Source: a virus | Strand: one strand, 5' to 3' | DNA: 6,136 nt | Virus record (IMG/VR): IMGVR_UViG_3300029541_000072 | Coordinates: 1 to 6,136 of that record | In this document: piece after piece, positions 1-6,136 of the stretch | Layout: each line of letters opens with the position of its first letter | Position numbering within the stretch: the first letter of the stretch is position 1 | The notes under the pieces: model-generated | Database searches by the model: none | Told to the model about the DNA's origin: nothing | Seen by the model: the letters and a program-made list of their open reading frames with translations, nothing else | Position numbers and translations under genes: made by a program

Positions 1-1305
1 TATGGTTCTTGTAAGATTTTGGATTTATTGGGTTATGGTTCATTTCTTGCTAGTGATAATATTTCTAAAAAGGCAATTACCAAATCATATTTAGGTCTTG
101 CTGATGTTGCCGATGTTGATAATCCTTTGGTTTATAAGTCTTCTCAGGTTGTAAATTTGCTTCCGCTATTGGCGTACCAGAAAGTCTATTTTGATTTTTT
201 CAGTAATTCTCAATGGGAAAAACATTTGGCCTATTCTTATAATGTTGATTATTGGGATGGAACGTCACAGTTGGCTGTTGTTCCTGATATGTTAAAGCTC
301 CGGTATGCTAATTACCCTAAAGACTATTTTATGGGTATACTTCCTAGTTCTCAGTACGGTTCGGTAGCGCTTCTTTCACCTCTTGACAGGACGCAACCGT
401 CTAATGTTGTTTTGGCTCGTACTACTGATGGCATAAGTACCTCGCCTGTTCGCAATCCTTCTGGCGGTGATATTGTTCAGACAACTTCATCTAATTCTGC
501 TAAATCCGATAGATTGCTTCGTGTTAATACCGACCTTTCTGCCCTTTCACTTCGTGCTACAGAATATCTCCAGCGTTGGAAAGAAGTAGTCCAGTTCTCT
601 AGTAAGGACTATTCTGATCAGATGTCAGCTCAATTTGGCATCAAGGCTCCTGAATATATGGGCAATCATTCTCATTATATTGGTGGTTGGTCTAATGTAA
701 TTAATATTAATGAGGTTCTTAATACAAATCTTTCTGCTGATAATTCTCAGGCTGTTATTGCTGGTAAAGGTGTTGGTTCTAATTCCGGCCATACTATTAC
801 TTATGATTGTGGTGCCGAGCATCAGGTGATTATTTGTGTTTATCATGCTGTTCCTTTGGTTGATTGGAATTTGACAGGTCAAAATCCTCAATTGACCGTT
901 TCTTCTATATCTGACTTTCCTCAACCTGCCTTTGATCAGTTGGGTATGCAGCCTGTCCCCGGCTTGAATCTTCATAATAATCCTAGTCGTTCTGTTTCTA
1001 CCTCAATTGGATATAATTTGCGTTATTGGCAATGGAAATCTAATATTGATACAGTTCATGCTGGTTTCCGTTCCGGTCTGGCTTACCAGTCTTGGTCCGC
1101 TCCTATTGATGGTTGGGATGTTTTGACTTCTTCTGGTTCTTGGTCTTATCAGTCCATGAAAGTCCGTCCTCAGCAATTGAATTCTATTTTTGAGCCTCAG
1201 GTTTCAGGCCAGAATTCTTCTGTTGCCTTTGATCAGTTATTGTGTAATGTTAATTTCCAAGTATATGCTGTCCAAAATTTGGACAGAAATGGTTTACCTT
1301 ATTAA
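1..1305 (+). CDS. Major capsid protein (Microviridae VP1/F family), C-terminal part. It continues in frame from 5603..6037 across the circular junction; the full protein is about 579 aa.
   Basis: Position 1 is in frame with the ORF starting at 19 and with 5603 (6038-5603 = 435, divisible by 3). The N-terminal part shows the typical microvirus MCP start (basic residues, F-x-L-S, G-E-I-L-P, P-G-N-K-Y, Y-D-F-Y-A-V-P-L-R). The track ORF 19..1305 is just the in-window tail. Confidence 0.88.
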   Translation, partial: YGSCKILDLLGYGSFLASDNISKKAITKSYLGLADVADVDNPLVYKSSQVVNLLPLLAYQKVYFDFFSNSQWEKHLAYSYNVDYWDGTSQLAVVPDMLKLRYANYPKDYFMGILPSSQYGSVALLSPLDRTQPSNVVLARTTDGISTSPVRNPSGGDIVQTTSSNSAKSDRLLRVNTDLSALSLRATEYLQRWKEVVQFSSKDYSDQMSAQFGIKAPEYMGNHSHYIGGWSNVININEVLNTNLSADNSQAVIAGKGVGSNSGHTITYDCGAEHQVIICVYHAVPLVDWNLTGQNPQLTVSSISDFPQPAFDQLGMQPVPGLNLHNNPSRSVSTSIGYNLRYWQWKSNIDTVHAGFRSGLAYQSWSAPIDGWDVLTSSGSWSYQSMKVRPQQLNSIFEPQVSGQNSSVAFDQLLCNVNFQVYAVQNLDRNGLPY

Positions 1306-1310
1306 TTTAG

Positions 1311-1757
1311 TTGATTATGAGAAGTTTTGCTTATATTAATCCCGATTTTATTCAGGATACTTATGTTCCTGTTAGTGTTGAAGATAATCCGTGTTATCAG
1401 CCGTCTGTTTATGATTCGGTTCTGTATGACGAACTTCCTGACGGTGATTTGATTCAGTGTGATATGACACAGATTCTTTTGAATCAGGAAAAATATCGTA
1501 ACCTGCTTGGTGATATGAATGTTCAGAACATTCTTGCCCAGATGCATCCTACTTCGTCTACTGCTATGGATAATATGACTGATGAAGAACGATTTAATTG
1601 TGTTATTTCGCGTCACTGTCAGACTATGTCTGAACGTCAGGCTGTTCTTAGAGAGTTGGCTAGCGAGCATTCTGAATTGTCTTCTTATGCTGAGTCTTTA
1701 TTGGCAGAGCAAAAGGCAGCGCCGTCTTCGGATCCCGCCCCTGCCTCTGCTGAATAA
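1311..1757 (+). CDS. Hypothetical 148-aa acidic protein between the MCP and pilot genes. It may be an internal scaffolding protein (VP3-like) or a spike/decoration protein; function unknown.
   Basis: Clean ORF on the coding strand with protein-like composition, rich in D/E and with a low-complexity A/P/S C-terminus. Its TAA stop at 1755-1757 shares a base with the ATG of the next gene (TAATG). Its position matches the small gene between F and H in phiX-like genomes and VP3 in gokushoviruses. Confidence 0.6.
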   Translation: MIMRSFAYINPDFIQDTYVPVSVEDNPCYQPSVYDSVLYDELPDGDLIQCDMTQILLNQEKYRNLLGDMNVQNILAQMHPTSSTAMDNMTDEERFNCVISRHCQTMSERQAVLRELASEHSELSSYAESLLAEQKAAPSSDPAPASAE

Positions 1758-2899
1758 TGGGCTTATTTGATGCTATTGCTTCTTCCGTAGGTAATCTTAC
1801 TGATAATGTTGTTGGTATGATTAACCAGAATCACCAGAATAAAGTCAATTTACGTATGATGCGCGAGCAAAATGATTTTAATGCAAAACAGGCTAGTCTA
1901 CAGCGTGATTGGCAAGAAGATATGTGGAATAAGAATAACGAGTATAATTCTCCTGAAGCAATGATTTCTCGAGGTTTAAACCCTTTTGTTGGTTCTTCTG
2001 CTGGTGCTGGTGTTTCTCGTTCTCCTGCCTCTGGTGGTGCTGCTGCTACCGCTGCTCCTGTTCCTAGTATGCAGGCATTTAAGCCTAATTTTTCCAATGT
2101 TTTTCAGTCACTCGCCTCTCTTGCTCAAGCCAGAGCTTCTAATGCTTCTGCTGGTGAGTCTGGTGCCCGTTCTAATCAGGTTGATACATTGACTCCTCTA
2201 TTGTCAGATTATTATAGAGGTCTTACTAATTGGAAGAATTTAGCGGTTGGTGAATCCGGTTATTGGAATAAGACGACAGGTCGTATATCTGCTGCCCTTG
2301 ACCAGTCTACTGAAGCTCAGAATTTGAGAAACGCTCAGTTCGCTGAACGTATTTCGGCCGCACAGGAAACGCAGATTTTGCTTAATTCTGAAGCTCAGCG
2401 TATTATGAATAAATATATGGACCAGAACCAACAAGCTGATTTGCTTATTAAGGCTCAAACCTTAGCCAATCTCCATTCCCAAGGTGCTCTTACTGAGAAG
2501 CAAATACAGACTGAAATTCAGCGTGCTATTCTTACTGCTGCTGAGGCTTCTGGTAAGAAAATTGACAATCATATAGCTTCCGAGACGGCTGACTCTTTGA
2601 TTAAGGCAGCTAAGGCCTCTAATGAATTGCAATATCGTGATTATACGTACGATTATGAGAATGTTAAGCTTCGTAAACATGCGGAGTATAAAACTTCTAT
2701 GGCTAATCAGAAAGCTGCTGAGTATGGTGCGGAATTGGCTCGTAAACAAGGACGTACTCATTATTGGGAATCTGTTGCTCGTGGTCTTGGTAGTATTGCT
2801 GCTGGTGCTGGTAATTTTATTGGCGCATTTCGTCCCGGTGCTAATATCTTTCGTAATGATTATGGTTCTCGTAATACTACTATTTATAATGGTCGGTAA
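1757..2899 (+). CDS. DNA pilot / minor capsid protein (VP2/H-like)
   Basis: The N-terminal block 'NDFNAKQASLQRDWQEDMWNKNNEYNSPEAMISRGLNP' fits the conserved gokushovirus VP2 signature (F-N-A..Q..R-D/E-W/F-Q-E..M..N..Y......G-L-N-P). It is followed by a Gly/Ala/Ser-rich low-complexity segment, a long Q/A/E-rich predicted coiled coil, and a C-terminal glycine zipper (GLGSIAAGAGNFIGAF). Confidence 0.8.
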   Translation: MGLFDAIASSVGNLTDNVVGMINQNHQNKVNLRMMREQNDFNAKQASLQRDWQEDMWNKNNEYNSPEAMISRGLNPFVGSSAGAGVSRSPASGGAAATAAPVPSMQAFKPNFSNVFQSLASLAQARASNASAGESGARSNQVDTLTPLLSDYYRGLTNWKNLAVGESGYWNKTTGRISAALDQSTEAQNLRNAQFAERISAAQETQILLNSEAQRIMNKYMDQNQQADLLIKAQTLANLHSQGALTEKQIQTEIQRAILTAAEASGKKIDNHIASETADSLIKAAKASNELQYRDYTYDYENVKLRKHAEYKTSMANQKAAEYGAELARKQGRTHYWESVARGLGSIAAGAGNFIGAFRPGANIFRNDYGSRNTTIYNGR

Positions 2900-2976
2900 A
2901 CATTCTTTAGGACTAGAAGCCCATCGCGGCGTTTGAGCGATATACACCCGCCGCCCGCGTAGGGCCTGATCGAAAA

Positions 2977-3102
2977 ATGGAGCGGAGCGACTTCCTTAGA
3001 GAAGCGTTCCGCTTCGGTATTTTAGCGCGTAGGCGCGCAAAGGCAAGACAGTTCCTGCCTTGCCGTGCCTATACACCCTGTATACATCCACTTGCTAATT
3101 AA
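2977..3102 (+). CDS. Candidate 41-aa arginine-rich micro-ORF (MERSDFLREAFRFGILARRRAKARQFLPCRAYTPCIHPLAN). It may be a J/VP8-like DNA-binding packaging protein.
   Basis: Hand translation gives ATG at 2977 and TAA at 3100-3102, with 9 Arg + 1 Lys against 3 acidic residues. Microviridae normally encode a very small basic DNA-binding protein (phiX174 J, gokushovirus VP8), and no other candidate is evident in this genome. Caveat: a GC-rich sequence will yield Arg codons by chance. Confidence 0.2.
   Translation: MERSDFLREAFRFGILARRRAKARQFLPCRAYTPCIHPLAN
3001..3024 (+). terminator. Candidate intrinsic terminator/hairpin: GAAGCG-TTC-CGCTTC followed by GGTATTTTA
   Basis: A perfect 6-bp GC-rich stem with a 3-nt loop lies about 100 nt downstream of the pilot-gene stop and is followed by a short T-tract. 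The T-tract is short and interrupted, so this is weak. Confidence 0.25.
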
Positions 3103-3129
3103 GCGAAGCCCCTAGTTGTGTGCGAAGCA

Positions 3130-3152
3130 AATCCGAGTTATCCTCTCGGATT
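3130..3152. repeat. Perfect inverted repeat / stem-loop AATCCGAG-(TTATCCT)-CTCGGATT
   Basis: An 8-bp perfect stem with a 7-nt loop, read directly from the sequence. It could be a complementary-strand origin, a primosome assembly site or a transcript-processing signal. Confidence 0.6.
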
Positions 3153-3219
3153 CTCCCTTCCCTTGTCCATAAACGCACAACTCACACTCCACGGTAGAAT
3201 CTAAAAAAAACAGTTTTTC

Positions 3220-3250
3220 TTTGGAATTATGATTTTAGTTCGTATATTTG
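3220..3250 (+). promoter_or_regulatory. Candidate Bacteroidetes sigma(ABfr)-type promoter: -33 TTTG (3220-3223), 19-nt spacer, -7 TAtaTTTG (3243-3250).
   Basis: It matches the published Bacteroides consensus TTTG-N19-21-TAnnTTTG. It lies about 50 nt upstream of the first ORF after the non-coding region (ATG 3302). It is consistent with the absence of Shine-Dalgarno motifs before every gene in the genome. Confidence 0.35.
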
Positions 3251-3301
3251 CTCCCAGTTAGAAGTTACAACTATTATTAACATTTTAAACATTTTACAAT
3301 T

Positions 3302-3514
3302 ATGCAAAGATTTATTATTTCTATTAAAGACAAAAATACTGGTCGTGATTTTATTTCGCCTTTTACTATCGATTCTCTTGATGGTTTTGGAGATTTTGTT
3401 GAGAGATTTACTTCATATGGTTGTCTTGTCATTATTGACTCGATTAAGGAGGAAAATGATTTCTTTGAGCTTTCACGTAAATTTGAACTATCTAAACCTG
3501 CTACTCATGAATAA
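3302..3514 (+). CDS. Hypothetical 70-aa acidic protein
   Basis: ORF with balanced, protein-like composition (13 D/E, 9 K/R) immediately downstream of the candidate promoter. Its stop overlaps the ATG of the next micro-ORF (ATGAATAA). I recognise no family. Confidence 0.5.
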   Translation: MQRFIISIKDKNTGRDFISPFTIDSLDGFGDFVERFTSYGCLVIIDSIKEENDFFELSRKFELSKPATHE

Positions 3515-3590
3515 GACTAATATTTGGAAAATCGTTATCGGTGCTGTTTCTGCTGCCTTAGGTTACATTCTTAATGCTATTGGACTATGA
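3507..3590 (+). CDS. Candidate 27-aa single-pass membrane peptide (MNKTNIWKIVIGAVSAALGYILNAIGL), a possible holin-/spanin-like partner of the downstream peptidase.
   Basis: ATG at 3507 overlaps the stop of the 70-aa ORF. Its own TGA (3588-3590) overlaps the ATG (3587-3589) of the peptidase gene (ATGA). It has a polar N-terminus (MNKTNIWK) followed by a roughly 19-residue hydrophobic helix. It is the C-terminal part of track ORF 3345..3590; the upstream Leu-rich portion overlaps the 70-aa ORF and is discounted. Confidence 0.3.
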   Translation: MNKTNIWKIVIGAVSAALGYILNAIGL

Positions 3591-3898
3591 ACTATACTCT
3601 TATGCATTTTCTTGAGTATTTGTTGTACTCTAATGTTCATTTTTCGGTGACTAGTGCTAGACGTACTCCTGAACAAAATAAGGCTTGCAATGGTTCCCCG
3701 AATTCTCAGCACCTTGTAGGCGAAGCTGTTGATATTAAGCCCTTTGGCTCTACTACATTTAATAAGTTGCTTGAAATGATTCATCTTTTTTCGGATAATG
3801 TTTCGCCATTTGACCAACTTATTATATATCCAACATTTATTCATATTTCGTTTTGCTCGCGTAACCGTCACCAAGTGATTGACAAACGTAATTATTAA
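3587..3898 (+). CDS. Zinc D-Ala-D-Ala carboxypeptidase-fold peptidase (Peptidase_M15 / LAS superfamily, M15_3-like); probable cell-wall hydrolase (endolysin).
   Basis: 'VHFSVTSARRTPEQNKACNGSPNSQHLVGEAVDI' fits the M15_3 core (S-x-x-R-s/t-P-E-x-N-x-A-x-G-G-x-x-N-S-Q-H-L-x-G-x-A-x-D-I), with the H-x6-D zinc-ligand pair. The C-terminal 'TFIHISF' matches the final His motif (fvHvD/S). Confidence 0.72.
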   Translation: MNYTLMHFLEYLLYSNVHFSVTSARRTPEQNKACNGSPNSQHLVGEAVDIKPFGSTTFNKLLEMIHLFSDNVSPFDQLIIYPTFIHISFCSRNRHQVIDKRNY

Positions 3899-3903
3899 TA
3901 ATT

Positions 3904-5583
3904 ATGAAATATTCTCCTGAATTGTTGAAAGCGGTTGACCATTGTCAACATCGTTCATTTATTACGAATAAGTACACTGGTACACGTATTGCCGTTGATT
4001 GTGGTCAATGCGATTATTGTATCCATAAGCGTGCTAAAAAAGCGTCCATACGAGTGAAGACTGCTGGAAGTGCTTTCAAGTATTCTTATTTTGTTACTCT
4101 TACGTATGATAATGCGAATCTTCCTCTTATGTATTGCAAGGTACTCCATAGTGAATATGAGGACGCTGTCGGCATTTCGGGAGATGTTCATTTTGGAAAT
4201 GAATACCATAATTACATTCCTGTTTCCGACTATCAATGTGATGATAACTCCGCGTTGCGTCATATATTCTTCGATCAGGTACAAGGTACTGTGCCGTTTG
4301 ACCGTGAGCTTAAGGAATATGTTCCTGTTAAGGATAATTGGTTTCTTTCTATGGATGCTATTCGTAGTTTTATCCATAAGACGCAAGCCCTTAACAAAAC
4401 GGACTATCCCGTTTCTGAACAATACGGCCGTGATAACCTTATTCCCTTTCTGAACTACGTTGATGTCCAGAACTATATAAAACGTTTACGTAAACATTTA
4501 TTTAAAAAATTAGGTTCTTATGAGACGTTACATTTTTACGCTGTGGGCGAGTATGGTCCTGTACACTTCCGTCCGCATTTCCATTTGTTATTATTCTCGA
4601 ACTCGAGCGAAGTCGCAAAGGTATTACGAGAATGTCACGATAAGAGTTGGAAACTCGGTCGTTCAGATTTCCAACATTCCGCTGGCGGAGCTGCGTCGTA
4701 CGTTGCGAGTTACGTTAACAGCCTTTGCTCTGCTCCCTTATTATATCGCTCATGCCGCTCGTTTAGACCCAAGTCGCGAGCATCTATTGGATTCTTTGAA
4801 AAAGGTTGCGATTTCGTGGAAGACGATGATCCTTATGCGCAAATTGAGGCAAAAATCGATTCTGTCGTTAATGGAAGATGCTACAACTTCGGCGGTTTCT
4901 GTGTTCGGTCAACTCCACCCATGTCGTATATCCGTACCTTACTCCCCCGATTCTCGTCTGCTCGCAATGACGATAGTACTGCGATTGCTCGAATTCTTTT
5001 CGCTGTTCACTCAACGCCAAAAAGGATTGCAAAATTCGGATTTGTAGATTATAAACAAGATTCGATTTTAGATCTTGTCCGTGTTTATTATCAATATCTT
5101 AAACTTAATCCTATTCTCACTGATGATGATAAGATTATATTACATAATGCTCGGTGCCTTACTAGGTTTGTTAACTTGTCTAGTGATGTTGACGTTCAGG
5201 CTTTTATTTCTAAGCTTTATCGGCTTTTCCTTTACGTTCATAAATTTTTTCGTAACTGGCATTTGCCTGATTTTGGTTCTAATATCGATTCTCGCTATGG
5301 TCGCGTTATGTTTATACTTAAAAAAGGCATAGAATATGAAACGAAAAAGAATTATGAAAGTTTACGAGATGCATATAGCCTCCGTTCCCAATACCCTGAT
5401 ATCTCAGATTGTATGTTTGCGTTGCCTCAGAATGGGCAGGAAATTGATGTCTTGCAGGCCGTATCGAGTGAAACGGTTCAACTCCTTGAGCAACTCCGGT
5501 ACCGTAGTTCGACATTCTGTCGTGATATGATTAAGCACAAAAAACTTAATGATGCTAACAATATATTTAACCGTATGGTCTAA
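3904..5583 (+). CDS. Rolling-circle replication initiator protein (Microviridae VP4/A-like, HUH superfamily I Rep)
   Basis: Motif I FVTLTYD (nt 4090-4110). Motif II HUH PHFHLLLF (H225 at 4576-4578, H227 at 4582-4584). Motif III with two catalytic Tyr, YVASYVN (Y266 at 4699-4701, Y270 at 4711-4713), is near-identical to phiX174 protein A YVAKYVN. The N-terminal Cys/His cluster (HCQH...CGQCDYCIH) is typical of VP4. Confidence 0.92.
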   Translation: MKYSPELLKAVDHCQHRSFITNKYTGTRIAVDCGQCDYCIHKRAKKASIRVKTAGSAFKYSYFVTLTYDNANLPLMYCKVLHSEYEDAVGISGDVHFGNEYHNYIPVSDYQCDDNSALRHIFFDQVQGTVPFDRELKEYVPVKDNWFLSMDAIRSFIHKTQALNKTDYPVSEQYGRDNLIPFLNYVDVQNYIKRLRKHLFKKLGSYETLHFYAVGEYGPVHFRPHFHLLLFSNSSEVAKVLRECHDKSWKLGRSDFQHSAGGAASYVASYVNSLCSAPLLYRSCRSFRPKSRASIGFFEKGCDFVEDDDPYAQIEAKIDSVVNGRCYNFGGFCVRSTPPMSYIRTLLPRFSSARNDDSTAIARILFAVHSTPKRIAKFGFVDYKQDSILDLVRVYYQYLKLNPILTDDDKIILHNARCLTRFVNLSSDVDVQAFISKLYRLFLYVHKFFRNWHLPDFGSNIDSRYGRVMFILKKGIEYETKKNYESLRDAYSLRSQYPDISDCMFALPQNGQEIDVLQAVSSETVQLLEQLRYRSSTFCRDMIKHKKLNDANNIFNRMV

Positions 5584-5602
5584 TTTTAAATTTTAATTAA
5601 TT

Positions 5603-6136
5603 ATGAGTGATTTTAATCCTTTGGACCGAGCTAAAATTAATGTTCATCGCTCGTCGTTCGATTTAAGTTCAAAGAAACTATTTTCCGCTAAAGTTGGTGA
5701 AATTTTACCTTGTTATTGGCAGATTGCTATTCCCGGTAATAAGTATCGTATTTCTTCTGATTGGTTTACCCGTACTGTCCCTGTTAATACGGCTGCTTAT
5801 ACCCGTATTAAAGAGTATTATGATTTTTACGCTGTGCCGTTACGTCTGATTTCCCGTGCTCTCCCGCAGGCATTTACCCAGATGTCTGATTATATGACCT
5901 CTGCCGATAGCGGTACTTCTAATACTAAGATGTTGTCTTCTGTACCTAATACATCTTTGCTTAATATTAGTAATACTCTTGCTCTTGCTGTCGGTTCTGG
6001 CTCTGATTTGCTTGATGATGCCGGTCTTCCGTTTTCATATGGTTCTTGTAAGATTTTGGATTTATTGGGTTATGGTTCATTTCTTGCTAGTGATAATATT
6101 TCTAAAAAGGCAATTACCAAATCATATTTAGGTCTT
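5603..6136 (+). CDS. Major capsid protein, N-terminal part. It runs off the window end into the duplicated region and continues at 1..1305.
   Basis: It starts 'MSDFNPLDRAKINVHRSSFDLSSKKLFSAKVGEILPCYWQIAIPGNKYRISSDWFTRTVPVNTAAYTRIKEYYDFYAVPLRL', the canonical microvirus MCP N-terminus. There is no in-frame stop before the window end, and 6038..6136 is identical to 1..99. Confidence 0.9.
   Translation, partial: MSDFNPLDRAKINVHRSSFDLSSKKLFSAKVGEILPCYWQIAIPGNKYRISSDWFTRTVPVNTAAYTRIKEYYDFYAVPLRLISRALPQAFTQMSDYMTSADSGTSNTKMLSSVPNTSLLNISNTLALAVGSGSDLLDDAGLPFSYGSCKILDLLGYGSFLASDNISKKAITKSYLGL
6038..6136. repeat. Terminal redundancy: 6038..6136 is an exact copy of 1..99, which fixes the circular genome unit length at 6037 bp.
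   Basis: Direct comparison of the first and last 99 bases of the window (tatggttcttgtaagattttggatttattgggttatggttc...ggtctt). Confidence 0.95.

Follow-up and report, generated by a model that had tools for sequence, protein, structure and literature searches.

Three overlapping genes at the locus

We analysed a 6,136-nucleotide (nt) stretch of viral DNA (IMG/VR record IMGVR_UViG_3300029541_000072, positions 1 to 6,136; hereafter "the window"), in which three overlapping open reading frames (ORFs) follow one another: a gene for a 70-amino-acid (aa) protein, a 27-codon micro-ORF for a membrane peptide, and a gene for a 103-aa M15_3 peptidase (Table 1). The ATG of the micro-ORF lies within ATGAATAA, giving an 8-nt overlap with the 3' end of the 70-aa ORF, while its stop codon overlaps the start of the peptidase gene as ATGA. 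Direct reading of the sequence gives MNKTNIWKIVIGAVSAALGYILNAIGL as the micro-ORF product. The coordinates, both start/stop overlaps (ATGAATAA and ATGA) and the translations agree with those in an earlier note on this DNA, made from the sequence alone, which had proposed that the peptide and the peptidase form a two-component lysis cassette in a microvirus. The two overlaps would couple translation of the 70-aa ORF, the micro-ORF, and the peptidase gene.

Conservation of the micro-ORF

Taken by itself, the micro-ORF is not beyond chance, since the window is T-rich (35% T) and 5 of the 13 ATG-initiated ORFs of 25-60 aa in the genome are of like hydrophobicity. That it is a real gene rather than a chance ORF follows from its conservation across relatives, for which we compared 80 IMG/VR loci (peptidase 65-97% identical) and 14 GenBank loci (50-90% identical). 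Among those with enough upstream DNA to be testable (78 from IMG/VR and the 14 from GenBank), the micro-ORF was intact in 78/78 and 14/14, respectively (92/92), with two apparent exceptions resolved, one as a GTG start and the other as a 33-nt duplication that leaves the micro-ORF whole. The latter, in the IMG/VR relative IMGVR_UViG_3300029238_000092, is a tandem duplication of the micro-ORF/peptidase junction, ~33 nt upstream of the peptidase start; both ORFs are intact there, and the peptidase may gain 11 N-terminal residues through the duplication.

The 23-codon core of the micro-ORF occurs in 82 nucleotide versions versus only 22 amino-acid versions, and the frequencies of non-consensus bases at the first, second, and third codon positions are 0.084, 0.004, and 0.216, i.e., second positions are nearly invariant. 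Leucine is encoded by CTN in some versions and by TTR in others, and Ser15 likewise persists through changes between TCN and AGY. By the Nei-Gojobori method, the ratio of nonsynonymous to synonymous substitution (dN/dS) is 0.073 at a dS of 0.61, compared with 0.224 at a dS of 0.73 for peptidase codons 3-68 in the same genomes; the +1 alternative frame of the micro-ORF contains stops in 54 of 84 genomes. This pattern of substitution points to a protein-coding gene under stronger purifying selection than the peptidase gene. As its amino-acid sequence is constrained, a pure leader-ORF role cannot explain the micro-ORF. The single hydrophobic helix described in the earlier note is thus the product of a genuine, strongly constrained single-pass membrane peptide gene that is physically coupled to the peptidase gene.

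Anatomy of the peptide

The peptide, MNKTNIWK-IVIGAVSAALGYILNAIGL, begins with a short N-terminal segment containing Lys3 and Lys8, with Trp7 at the interface, followed by a 19-residue helix that runs to the C-terminus; its consensus among relatives is M-K-S-N-N-I-W-K-I-[VI]-I-G-A-[VI]-S-A-A-L-G-Y-[IV]-L-N-[AS]-I-G-L. By hydropathy, this 19-residue stretch (mean Kyte-Doolittle [KD] value 2.0) provides one transmembrane (TM) helix beside an adjoining endolysin gene, as in holins, which have at least one. The helix is 42% Gly/Ala/Ser/Thr, and its summed Hessa insertion energy is marginal (~+1.6 kcal/mol). Since a 27-aa product leaves the ribosome before the helix emerges, we infer that insertion would be post-translational, and from the positive-inside rule the N-terminus is predicted to be cytoplasmic.

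On a helical wheel, the invariant residues G12, S15, A16, G19, N23, and G26 fall inside a 100-degree arc centred at 340 degrees and the variable positions (10, 14, 21, 24, and 25) face the opposite way, at 164 degrees (moment 0.83 of 0.99; permutation p = 0.004). This one-sided conservation has the appearance of a signature of a specific helix-helix interface, of the glycine-zipper/small-xxx-small type with a membrane-buried Asn, with the variable face presumably exposed to lipid. Neither a Cys/lipobox nor a cationic amphipathic character is present in the peptide, which is uniformly hydrophobic with only two Lys; for these reasons, a spanin or disruptin reading was rejected.

The M15 peptidase

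The peptidase matches Pfam PF08291 (Peptidase_M15_3) at 35.4 bits (E 1.3e-8; gathering cut-off 23.2), with residues 19-87 aligned on profile positions 43-107 of 108, and PHROG 894 ("endolysin") at E 1.2e-14; among the matches listed, PF08291 is carried by 120/120 peptidase homologues. Residues H42, D49, and H86, which form the His-x6-Asp ... His pattern of putative zinc ligands, are invariant in 31 homologues, as is a further set (S-A-R-R ... N ... S-Q-H ... D-Q). A PDB sequence search with the peptidase profile returned only a weak match (E 0.45), to the T5 endolysin 2mxz, in which H42 and D49 align with positions 66 and 73, which we take to be zinc ligands of that enzyme. In a fold search, the peptidase has the central antiparallel sheet and flanking helices of the LAS fold. 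The M15/LAS assignment of the earlier note is thus borne out by the profile score, and its zinc ligands by their invariance.

At 12.0 kDa, the 103-aa enzyme is a minimal form compared with the 126-178 aa of the peptidases in other microviruses, without some 30-40 of their N-terminal residues. No signal peptide was found in it (maximum KD hydropathy over 17 residues [KD17], 0.79), in keeping with what had been noted earlier, and in the structure model its N-terminus is a well-packed helix that includes Glu10 (predicted local distance difference test [pLDDT] 85-95). By annotation, homologues at 37-45% identity adjoin holin/spanin genes in phages Siara and BS-TP2, as expected of an endolysin. From sequence, the peptidase is probably an endolysin that cleaves the peptide stems or cross-links of peptidoglycan.

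Linkage of membrane peptides to M15 peptidases

Small membrane peptides lie beside M15 peptidase genes in several configurations, which we sorted into groups A to D. Group A peptides are encoded upstream, in the +1 frame and with the ATGA overlap, in ~90 loci and 35 GenBank records; a tblastn search with a group A peptide against 50,697 phage records recovered these 35, all from microviruses, and in each the peptidase gene directly follows the peptide gene. In bajarodmic viruses 410 and 1134 and Dulem viruses 236 and 257, this position is taken by a group B peptide gene (MKSETKSKIWSAIIAAAVSLLTSIAQIFS), which is upstream in the peptidase's own frame and separated from it by the stop plus one codon; in marmot microvirus mar62, a group B gene instead has the ATGA overlap. 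The tblastn search with the group B peptide gave 0 matches, for which low-complexity masking is the probable cause. In mar56, the micro-ORF and the peptidase gene are 14 nt apart and in different frames.

Group C peptides, with the motif M[L]TKE..L..ISN..CALISA[VI]CAA[LI]SYF.S (compare IIGAVSAALGYIL), are encoded downstream. In MG945328 and MG945336 (Table 1), the peptide gene follows a full-length 131-aa peptidase and overlaps its 3' end, and by tblastn group C was present in 13 porcine microviruses, overlapping the peptidase gene or ~100-150 nt after it in 13/13. In some of these genomes, the peptidase has just ~37% identity to the MG945328 enzyme. IMG/VR was also searched for the group C peptides and the associated peptidase, with 0 matches. 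In group D (MEASKKQKLWQIVINAVISVVSLLTGMSL), from MG945494, the peptide gene lies ~300 nt downstream of the peptidase gene. MG945328 and MG945336 are the pair used by Kirchberger et al. to illustrate a ~700-nt peptidase region exchanged between distant microvirus families (PMC9239249). In our alignment of the two, the shared segment is 766 nt long at 75.8% identity and extends to the end of the peptide ORF. A GC-rich segment upstream of the peptidase is repeated in both.

A hidden Markov model (HMM) built from group A alone ranked group D first (E 0.013) and group C second (E 0.19) among 1,346 six-frame ORFs, while an HMM of group C alone ranked three group A peptides first (E 0.14-0.56) among 1,006 ORFs. 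The matches between A and C are thus reciprocal, and each lies beside a peptidase; the E-values are weak, as expected at such a size. The occurrence of these peptides beside M15 peptidases in at least four arrangements, upstream or downstream, argues for a portable two-gene lysis module.

A 24.7-kb contig from Logan (SRR29466483) carries a micro-ORF, a peptidase gene, and a microvirus Rep gene at 9921-12224, with ~80% nucleotide identity to window positions 3507-5346 and 5509-5664, the similarity beginning exactly at the micro-ORF ATG. There, the module sits amid dsDNA-phage-like genes (dUTPase, D5_N/DUF5906 primase, Bro-N, and T5orf172), with no capsid gene within 10 kb; the contig may be an assembly chimera, or else the module has genuinely been captured.

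Unrelated small hydrophobic ORFs occupy the VP2-peptidase intergenic space in two further peptidase-bearing loci (202-324, 40 aa, in L098; 202-291, 29 aa, in L102); these may be partners of an analogous kind, or may have arisen by chance in T-rich DNA. Several small hydrophobic ORFs near peptidases, in loci L097-L103 and in phiHBP1, were considered as candidates and rejected, as most of them fall within other genes, and homology or conservation could be demonstrated for none.

Expression, genome, and host

A two-part promoter motif, TTTG-N19-TAnnTTTG, lies upstream of the 70-aa ORF; we take it to be a consensus specific to Bacteroidota. The window contains 2 matches to it versus 0.40 expected, and this copy falls within the one large stretch without coding sequence. 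The motif recurs in 52 of 87 related genomes at an equal offset (-311 to -336 from the peptidase ATG), with a variable spacer and a -7 box that reads either TATATTTG or TACCTTTG. Transcription of a unit comprising the 70-aa ORF, the micro-ORF, and the peptidase gene, possibly with Rep, probably begins here. A scan for sigma-70 promoters and terminators over 2850-4000 gave results near chance, with none beyond chance between the three ORFs. Given the upstream motif and the lack of such internal signals, the 70-aa ORF, the peptide gene, and the peptidase gene most likely form a single transcript, on which Rep is probably carried as well. Conserved across 187 database clusters, the 70-aa protein yields a confident small alpha/beta model; it gave no Pfam or PHROG family match and no significant fold match.

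The first 99 nt of the window (1-99) are identical to the last 99 (6038-6136), and this exact terminal repeat marks an assembly overlap, so that the window represents a complete circular genome of 6,037 nt, with every gene on the plus strand. In GenBank, it is closest to uncultured microviruses from gut samples of dog, lemur ("Dulem virus"), rodent ("bajarodmic virus"), marmot, and human, the top one having 82% nucleotide identity to the window.

Table 1. Positions of the genes and signals discussed, in the window unless another sequence is named
Feature	Sequence	Position	Strand	Remarks
VP1 major capsid protein, 579 aa	window	5603 across junction to 1305	+	Pfam Phage_F, PHROG 514
148-aa ORF	window	1311-1757	+	
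VP2 pilot protein	window	1757-2899	+	
Non-coding stretch	window	between VP2 and 70-aa ORF		~400 nt
Bacteroidota-type promoter consensus	window	3220-3250	+	TTTG-N19-TAnnTTTG (TTTGGAATTATGATTTTAGTTCGTATATTTG); ~52 nt upstream of 70-aa ORF
70-aa ORF, conserved soluble protein	window	3302-3514	+	terminates ...CAT GAA TAA
Micro-ORF, 27 codons, membrane peptide gene	window	3507-3590	+	stop TGA 3588-3590
M15_3 peptidase, 103 aa	window	3587-3898	+	ATG 3587-3589
Rep/VP4	window	3904-5583	+	PF23343, PHROG 942
Group C membrane ORF, 29-30 aa	MG945328 (L107)	5404-5490		overprinted on peptidase 3' end
Group C membrane ORF, 29-30 aa	MG945336 (L108)	5730-5816		overprinted on peptidase 3' end

Compared end to end with phiHBP1, a microvirus of Bacteroides fragilis, the window has 34% identity in VP1 and 29% in Rep. 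The promoter motif and these identities are the grounds on which we infer a Bacteroidota host. phiHBP1 has been described as the first isolate of a Bacteroidota-infecting microvirus (PMC13064476). A peptidase-alignment scan of bacterial genome contigs for prophage copies found 0 relatives.

The non-coding stretch between VP2 and the 70-aa ORF contains a GC-rich island of ~300 nt (2900-3200; GC 0.51-0.54 versus 0.34-0.37 nearby) with several stable hairpins (-58.3 kcal/mol when folded as ssDNA, z = -3.8 versus shuffles). The segment 2910-3334, which contains the island, is ~76% identical to Dulem virus 243 and is the sole megablast match in that genome. The island may be a complementary-strand origin or a regulatory region; an Rfam scan of the window gave no meaningful match.

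Previous knowledge and annotation

Microvirus M15 peptidases have been on record for some time. Roux et al. in 2012 described M15_3 peptidases in 11 human-associated Alpavirinae/Gokushovirinae genomes, inferred their horizontal acquisition, and proposed an endolysin role (PMC3394797); later surveys class them as lysis-associated accessory genes (PMC9239249, PMC11499846). In 2025, the purified peptidoglycan hydrolase Gp7 of microvirus Ebor was found to degrade peptidoglycan, reported as the first verified case for an ssDNA phage (PMC11980548). The premise of the earlier note that microviruses lyse their hosts without muralytic enzymes is therefore wrong (PMC3394797, PMC11980548), and the endolysin-type strategy that it put forward had already been proposed in 2012 and is implied by GenBank annotation: the gene is named "peptidase" in relatives of the window (Dulem, bajarodmic, marmot, and dog-faeces microviruses), to whose annotated products the window's enzyme is 50-90% identical.

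The peptidase is thus ordinary for this group of viruses, and what is new at the locus is the membrane peptide. The microvirus literature covered by our full-text searches makes no mention of a membrane micro-ORF coupled to the peptidase, and Kirchberger et al., by their own statement, omitted overprinted genes from their analysis (PMC9239249). The micro-ORF is annotated in 0/14 of the GenBank records inspected. In a protein database search that used a 44-aa upstream-extended version of the peptide, we found it called sporadically, in 165 protein clusters, all of those listed being on short virus-sized contigs and either nameless or spuriously named (e.g., "HdeD (DUF308)" or "ThiT component"); the partner peptidase is represented by 1,411 database clusters. 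An 84-nt gene falls under the default length limits of gene callers. In Dulem viruses 238, 243, and 226, the coding sequence (CDS) at 838-1212, annotated as "peptidase" or "hypothetical", overshoots by 21 codons; the extension, which comes from taking the longest ORF in the frame of the peptidase, masks the micro-ORF in the +1 frame. We also considered these over-long CDSs as a TM-peptidase fusion and discarded the idea, as they are a frame-0 longest-ORF artefact in which the helix is not included.

A proposed holin-endolysin-type model

The peptidase has no export signal, so a membrane lesion would be needed for it to act. Its homologues in tailed dsDNA phages appear, by annotation, to be the endolysins of canonical cassettes in which neighbouring holins supply the lesion; in the Bacteroides phage BS-TP2, the holin gene lies directly upstream of the M15_3 endolysin gene with a 4-nt overlap, the same geometry as here. 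In the window, the only membrane protein encoded beside the peptidase is the 27-aa peptide. That the peptide takes part in lysis in some way is a proposition we favour, with fair confidence; that it and the 103-aa LAS peptidase together form a two-gene lysis module of the holin-endolysin type is, of the explanations considered, the one best supported, although we regard it as evenly poised.

We infer the following course for membrane insertion, topology, oligomerization, hole formation, peptidase activity, and timing. Peptide and peptidase would be transcribed from the Bacteroidota-type promoter upstream of the 70-aa ORF, with their translation coupled via the ATGA overlap. The folded, signal-less 12-kDa peptidase would build up in the cytoplasm, while the peptide, too short for co-translational targeting, would insert post-translationally with its N-terminus inside. 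It would then oligomerize via its invariant Gly12-Ser15-Ala16-Gly19-Asn23-Gly26 face, and at a critical concentration the oligomers would permeabilize the inner membrane, allowing the peptidase to reach peptidoglycan and cut its peptide links.

The earlier note had named a holin, a pinholin, or a membrane-targeting partner as possible roles of the peptide. The holin or membrane-partner role is plausible, given a linkage that is conserved across rearrangements, and is unaccompanied by significant similarity to any holin family. Its pinholin variant does not hold and was rejected along with a SAR (signal-anchor-release) endolysin, as the peptidase has no SAR/signal-anchor domain (its N-terminus being the packed, Glu10-containing helix of low hydropathy described above) and 27 aa hold only one TM helix, not two.

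Several points weigh against a holin-endolysin-type module. (i) The peptides have no Pfam match and no significant PHROG match to a holin family; their weak PHROG matches, non-significant after multiple testing, do fall mostly in holin families (phrog_689, E 0.026, and phrog_443, E 0.13, for two of six peptides), which speaks slightly in favour of the module. (ii) At 27 aa, the peptide is far below the roughly 60-150 aa of holins, and the hydrophilic, charged C-terminal tail typical of these is absent because the peptide ends (...NAIGL) at the end of its helix, its only charges being Lys3 and Lys8. (iii) Holins are usually fast-evolving, and the peptide is nearly invariant; binding to a conserved host target would fit such near-invariance at least as well. 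(iv) No outer-membrane-disrupting (spanin-like) component was found. (v) The peptides are short and hydrophobic, the E-values behind a homology among groups A, B, C, and D are weak, and the relationship of A to B is one of position, size, and pattern, without support from sequence statistics; within groups A and B, adjacency could be mere inherited synteny. (vi) A peptide homologue was undetected in seven other peptidase-bearing microviruses, including phiHBP1, and the peptidase is therefore not strictly dependent on the peptide.

Comparison with known lysis systems

The M15_3 peptidases of Alpavirinae and Gokushovirinae share with the present enzyme their Pfam family, their virus family, and their place between accessory genes and Rep; the difference is the adjacent membrane micro-ORF, which goes unmentioned in those reports and in the GenBank annotations. 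The cassettes of BS-TP2 and of Siara, a Stenotrophomonas phage, resemble the locus in having a homologous endolysin (43-45% identity) without a signal peptide and an adjoining gene for a membrane protein. Siara encodes an endolysin, holin/antiholin, and spanins, and BS-TP2 a holin followed by its M15_3 endolysin, with holins of 149 aa in BS-TP2 and of ~104 and ~124 aa from the two holin/antiholin genes of Siara, as against 27 aa for the partner here. In contrast to these tailed-phage cassettes, the window, a 6-kb ssDNA virus, has a partner with one TM domain (TMD) and no charged tail, and no antiholin or spanin genes.

Single-gene lysis proteins offer a second comparison. The E protein of phiX174 (91 aa) inhibits MraY, and LysM of levivirus M (37 aa) inhibits MurJ; in these systems, there is no muralytic enzyme, and the genes are overprinted on other genes. 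The likeness lies in a very small single-TMD peptide, encoded by a phage with a tiny genome and conserved in a sequence-specific way on one face of its helix; the peptide here differs in having its own coding space and in being always linked to a peptidoglycan peptidase. A third comparison is the lysis pair of cystovirus phi6, in which P10 (a 42-aa membrane protein) and P5 (a lytic endopeptidase) are components of the virion/envelope. Here too, a tiny hydrophobic protein is required along with a peptidoglycan endopeptidase, in a phage that has no tail and infects a Gram-negative host, although neither the virus nor its enzyme fold or sequences are related to those considered here. Finally, Ebor (Tainavirinae) is, by its description, a microvirus with an active hydrolase (Gp7) and a 45-aa predicted membrane protein (Gp1), albeit one with an alphaproteobacterial host and in which the two genes are not described as adjacent or coupled and Gp1 is assigned no role (PMC11980548).

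Alternative explanations

The peptide could be a membrane protein unrelated to release of the peptidase, e.g., a burst-size modulator like phiX174 K, a superinfection-exclusion factor, or a helper of DNA entry or replication, with adjacency owed to compaction and shared descent. Tiny genomes pack their genes tightly, so adjacency within a clade is weak evidence of a common function; moreover, some peptidase-bearing microviruses are without the peptide, and the 45-aa predicted membrane protein of Ebor is not encoded next to the peptidoglycan hydrolase gene. However, adjacency here survives an upstream/downstream flip, a change of frame, and peptidase lineages only ~37% identical, and the similarity of the Logan contig to the window starts exactly at the peptide ATG. 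We therefore consider a role apart from lysis unlikely, while leaving it a place among the explanations to be weighed.

In a second alternative, the peptide would act as a protein antibiotic of the single-gene-lysis type, its invariant face blocking a host membrane protein of envelope biogenesis, with the peptidase in an accessory role (such as clearing sacculus debris). Single-TMD lysis proteins of ~37 aa have precedents, and it is the unusual conservation of the peptide that keeps this explanation alive: one TMD, a very small size, a dN/dS of 0.07, and a single invariant face fit a fixed host target better than they fit fast-evolving holins. The one-sided face is compatible with inhibition of a host wall-synthesis membrane protein without being diagnostic of it. 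On the other hand, phages with such amurins have no muralytic enzyme, and here an M15_3 gene is directly coupled to the peptide gene; every homologue found lies beside an M15 peptidase, in four arrangements, which would be unexpected if the peptide alone sufficed. In addition, known single-gene-lysis genes are typically overprinted, while the peptide gene has its own space, and no similarity to E, L, or LysM was seen. We thus judge a stand-alone lysis protein to be rather improbable.

Recoding might instead join the two ORFs, by a -1 frameshift in group A and by read-through in group B, to give a SAR-like, Sec-exported peptidase with the free peptide as a by-product. The peptide does resemble an orphan signal or anchor, with its basic N-region, Gly/Ala/Ser-rich helix, and Hessa dG of ~+1.6 kcal/mol, and the group B ORFs are in frame with one stop codon between them. 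Nevertheless, a conserved slippery heptamer is absent (all four third bases occur in the Gly26 codon, and TTA, CTA, and ATA each serve as the last codon), the recoding event would have to be a -1 shift in group A but read-through in group B, the mar56 ORFs are 14 nt apart in different frames, and the peptide of groups C and D is encoded after the peptidase, all of which make recoding very hard to credit. Lastly, that the micro-ORF does nothing as a protein, being a chance ORF (short hydrophobic ORFs are common in this T-rich genome, 5/13) or a leader/upstream ORF that brings ribosomes to the start of the peptidase gene (coupled translation being implied by the ATGA overlap), is the least credible account, given a sequence kept at dN/dS 0.073 despite a dS of 0.61, with near-invariant second positions and Ser retained across TCN/AGY, and given that an upstream ORF serving coupling alone would not constrain the peptide sequence.

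Implications

Beyond the two-gene holin-endolysin-type module of the window, we tentatively suggest a broader proposal, on which we place somewhat less weight: that the 26-30-aa peptides constitute an unrecognized family of lysis effectors of minimal size, be they holins smaller than any known or inhibitors aimed at a specific Bacteroidota envelope protein, which may travel with an M15 endolysin as a portable ~400-700-nt two-gene module swapped between distant microvirus families of the gut virome.

Microviruses are among the most abundant phages of the mammalian gut, and beyond phiX174 their lysis is largely unexplained. A peptidase alone cannot account for it, because it has no way across the inner membrane; the conserved, coupled 27-aa membrane peptide is thus a concrete candidate for the missing inner-membrane step. 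The micro-ORF further shows clearly how standard annotation can overlook a functional micro-gene, in this instance one carried by hundreds of public genomes. If the peptide permeabilizes membranes, it would provide a minimal model for hole formation, as well as a possible lead for lytic tools against Bacteroidota.

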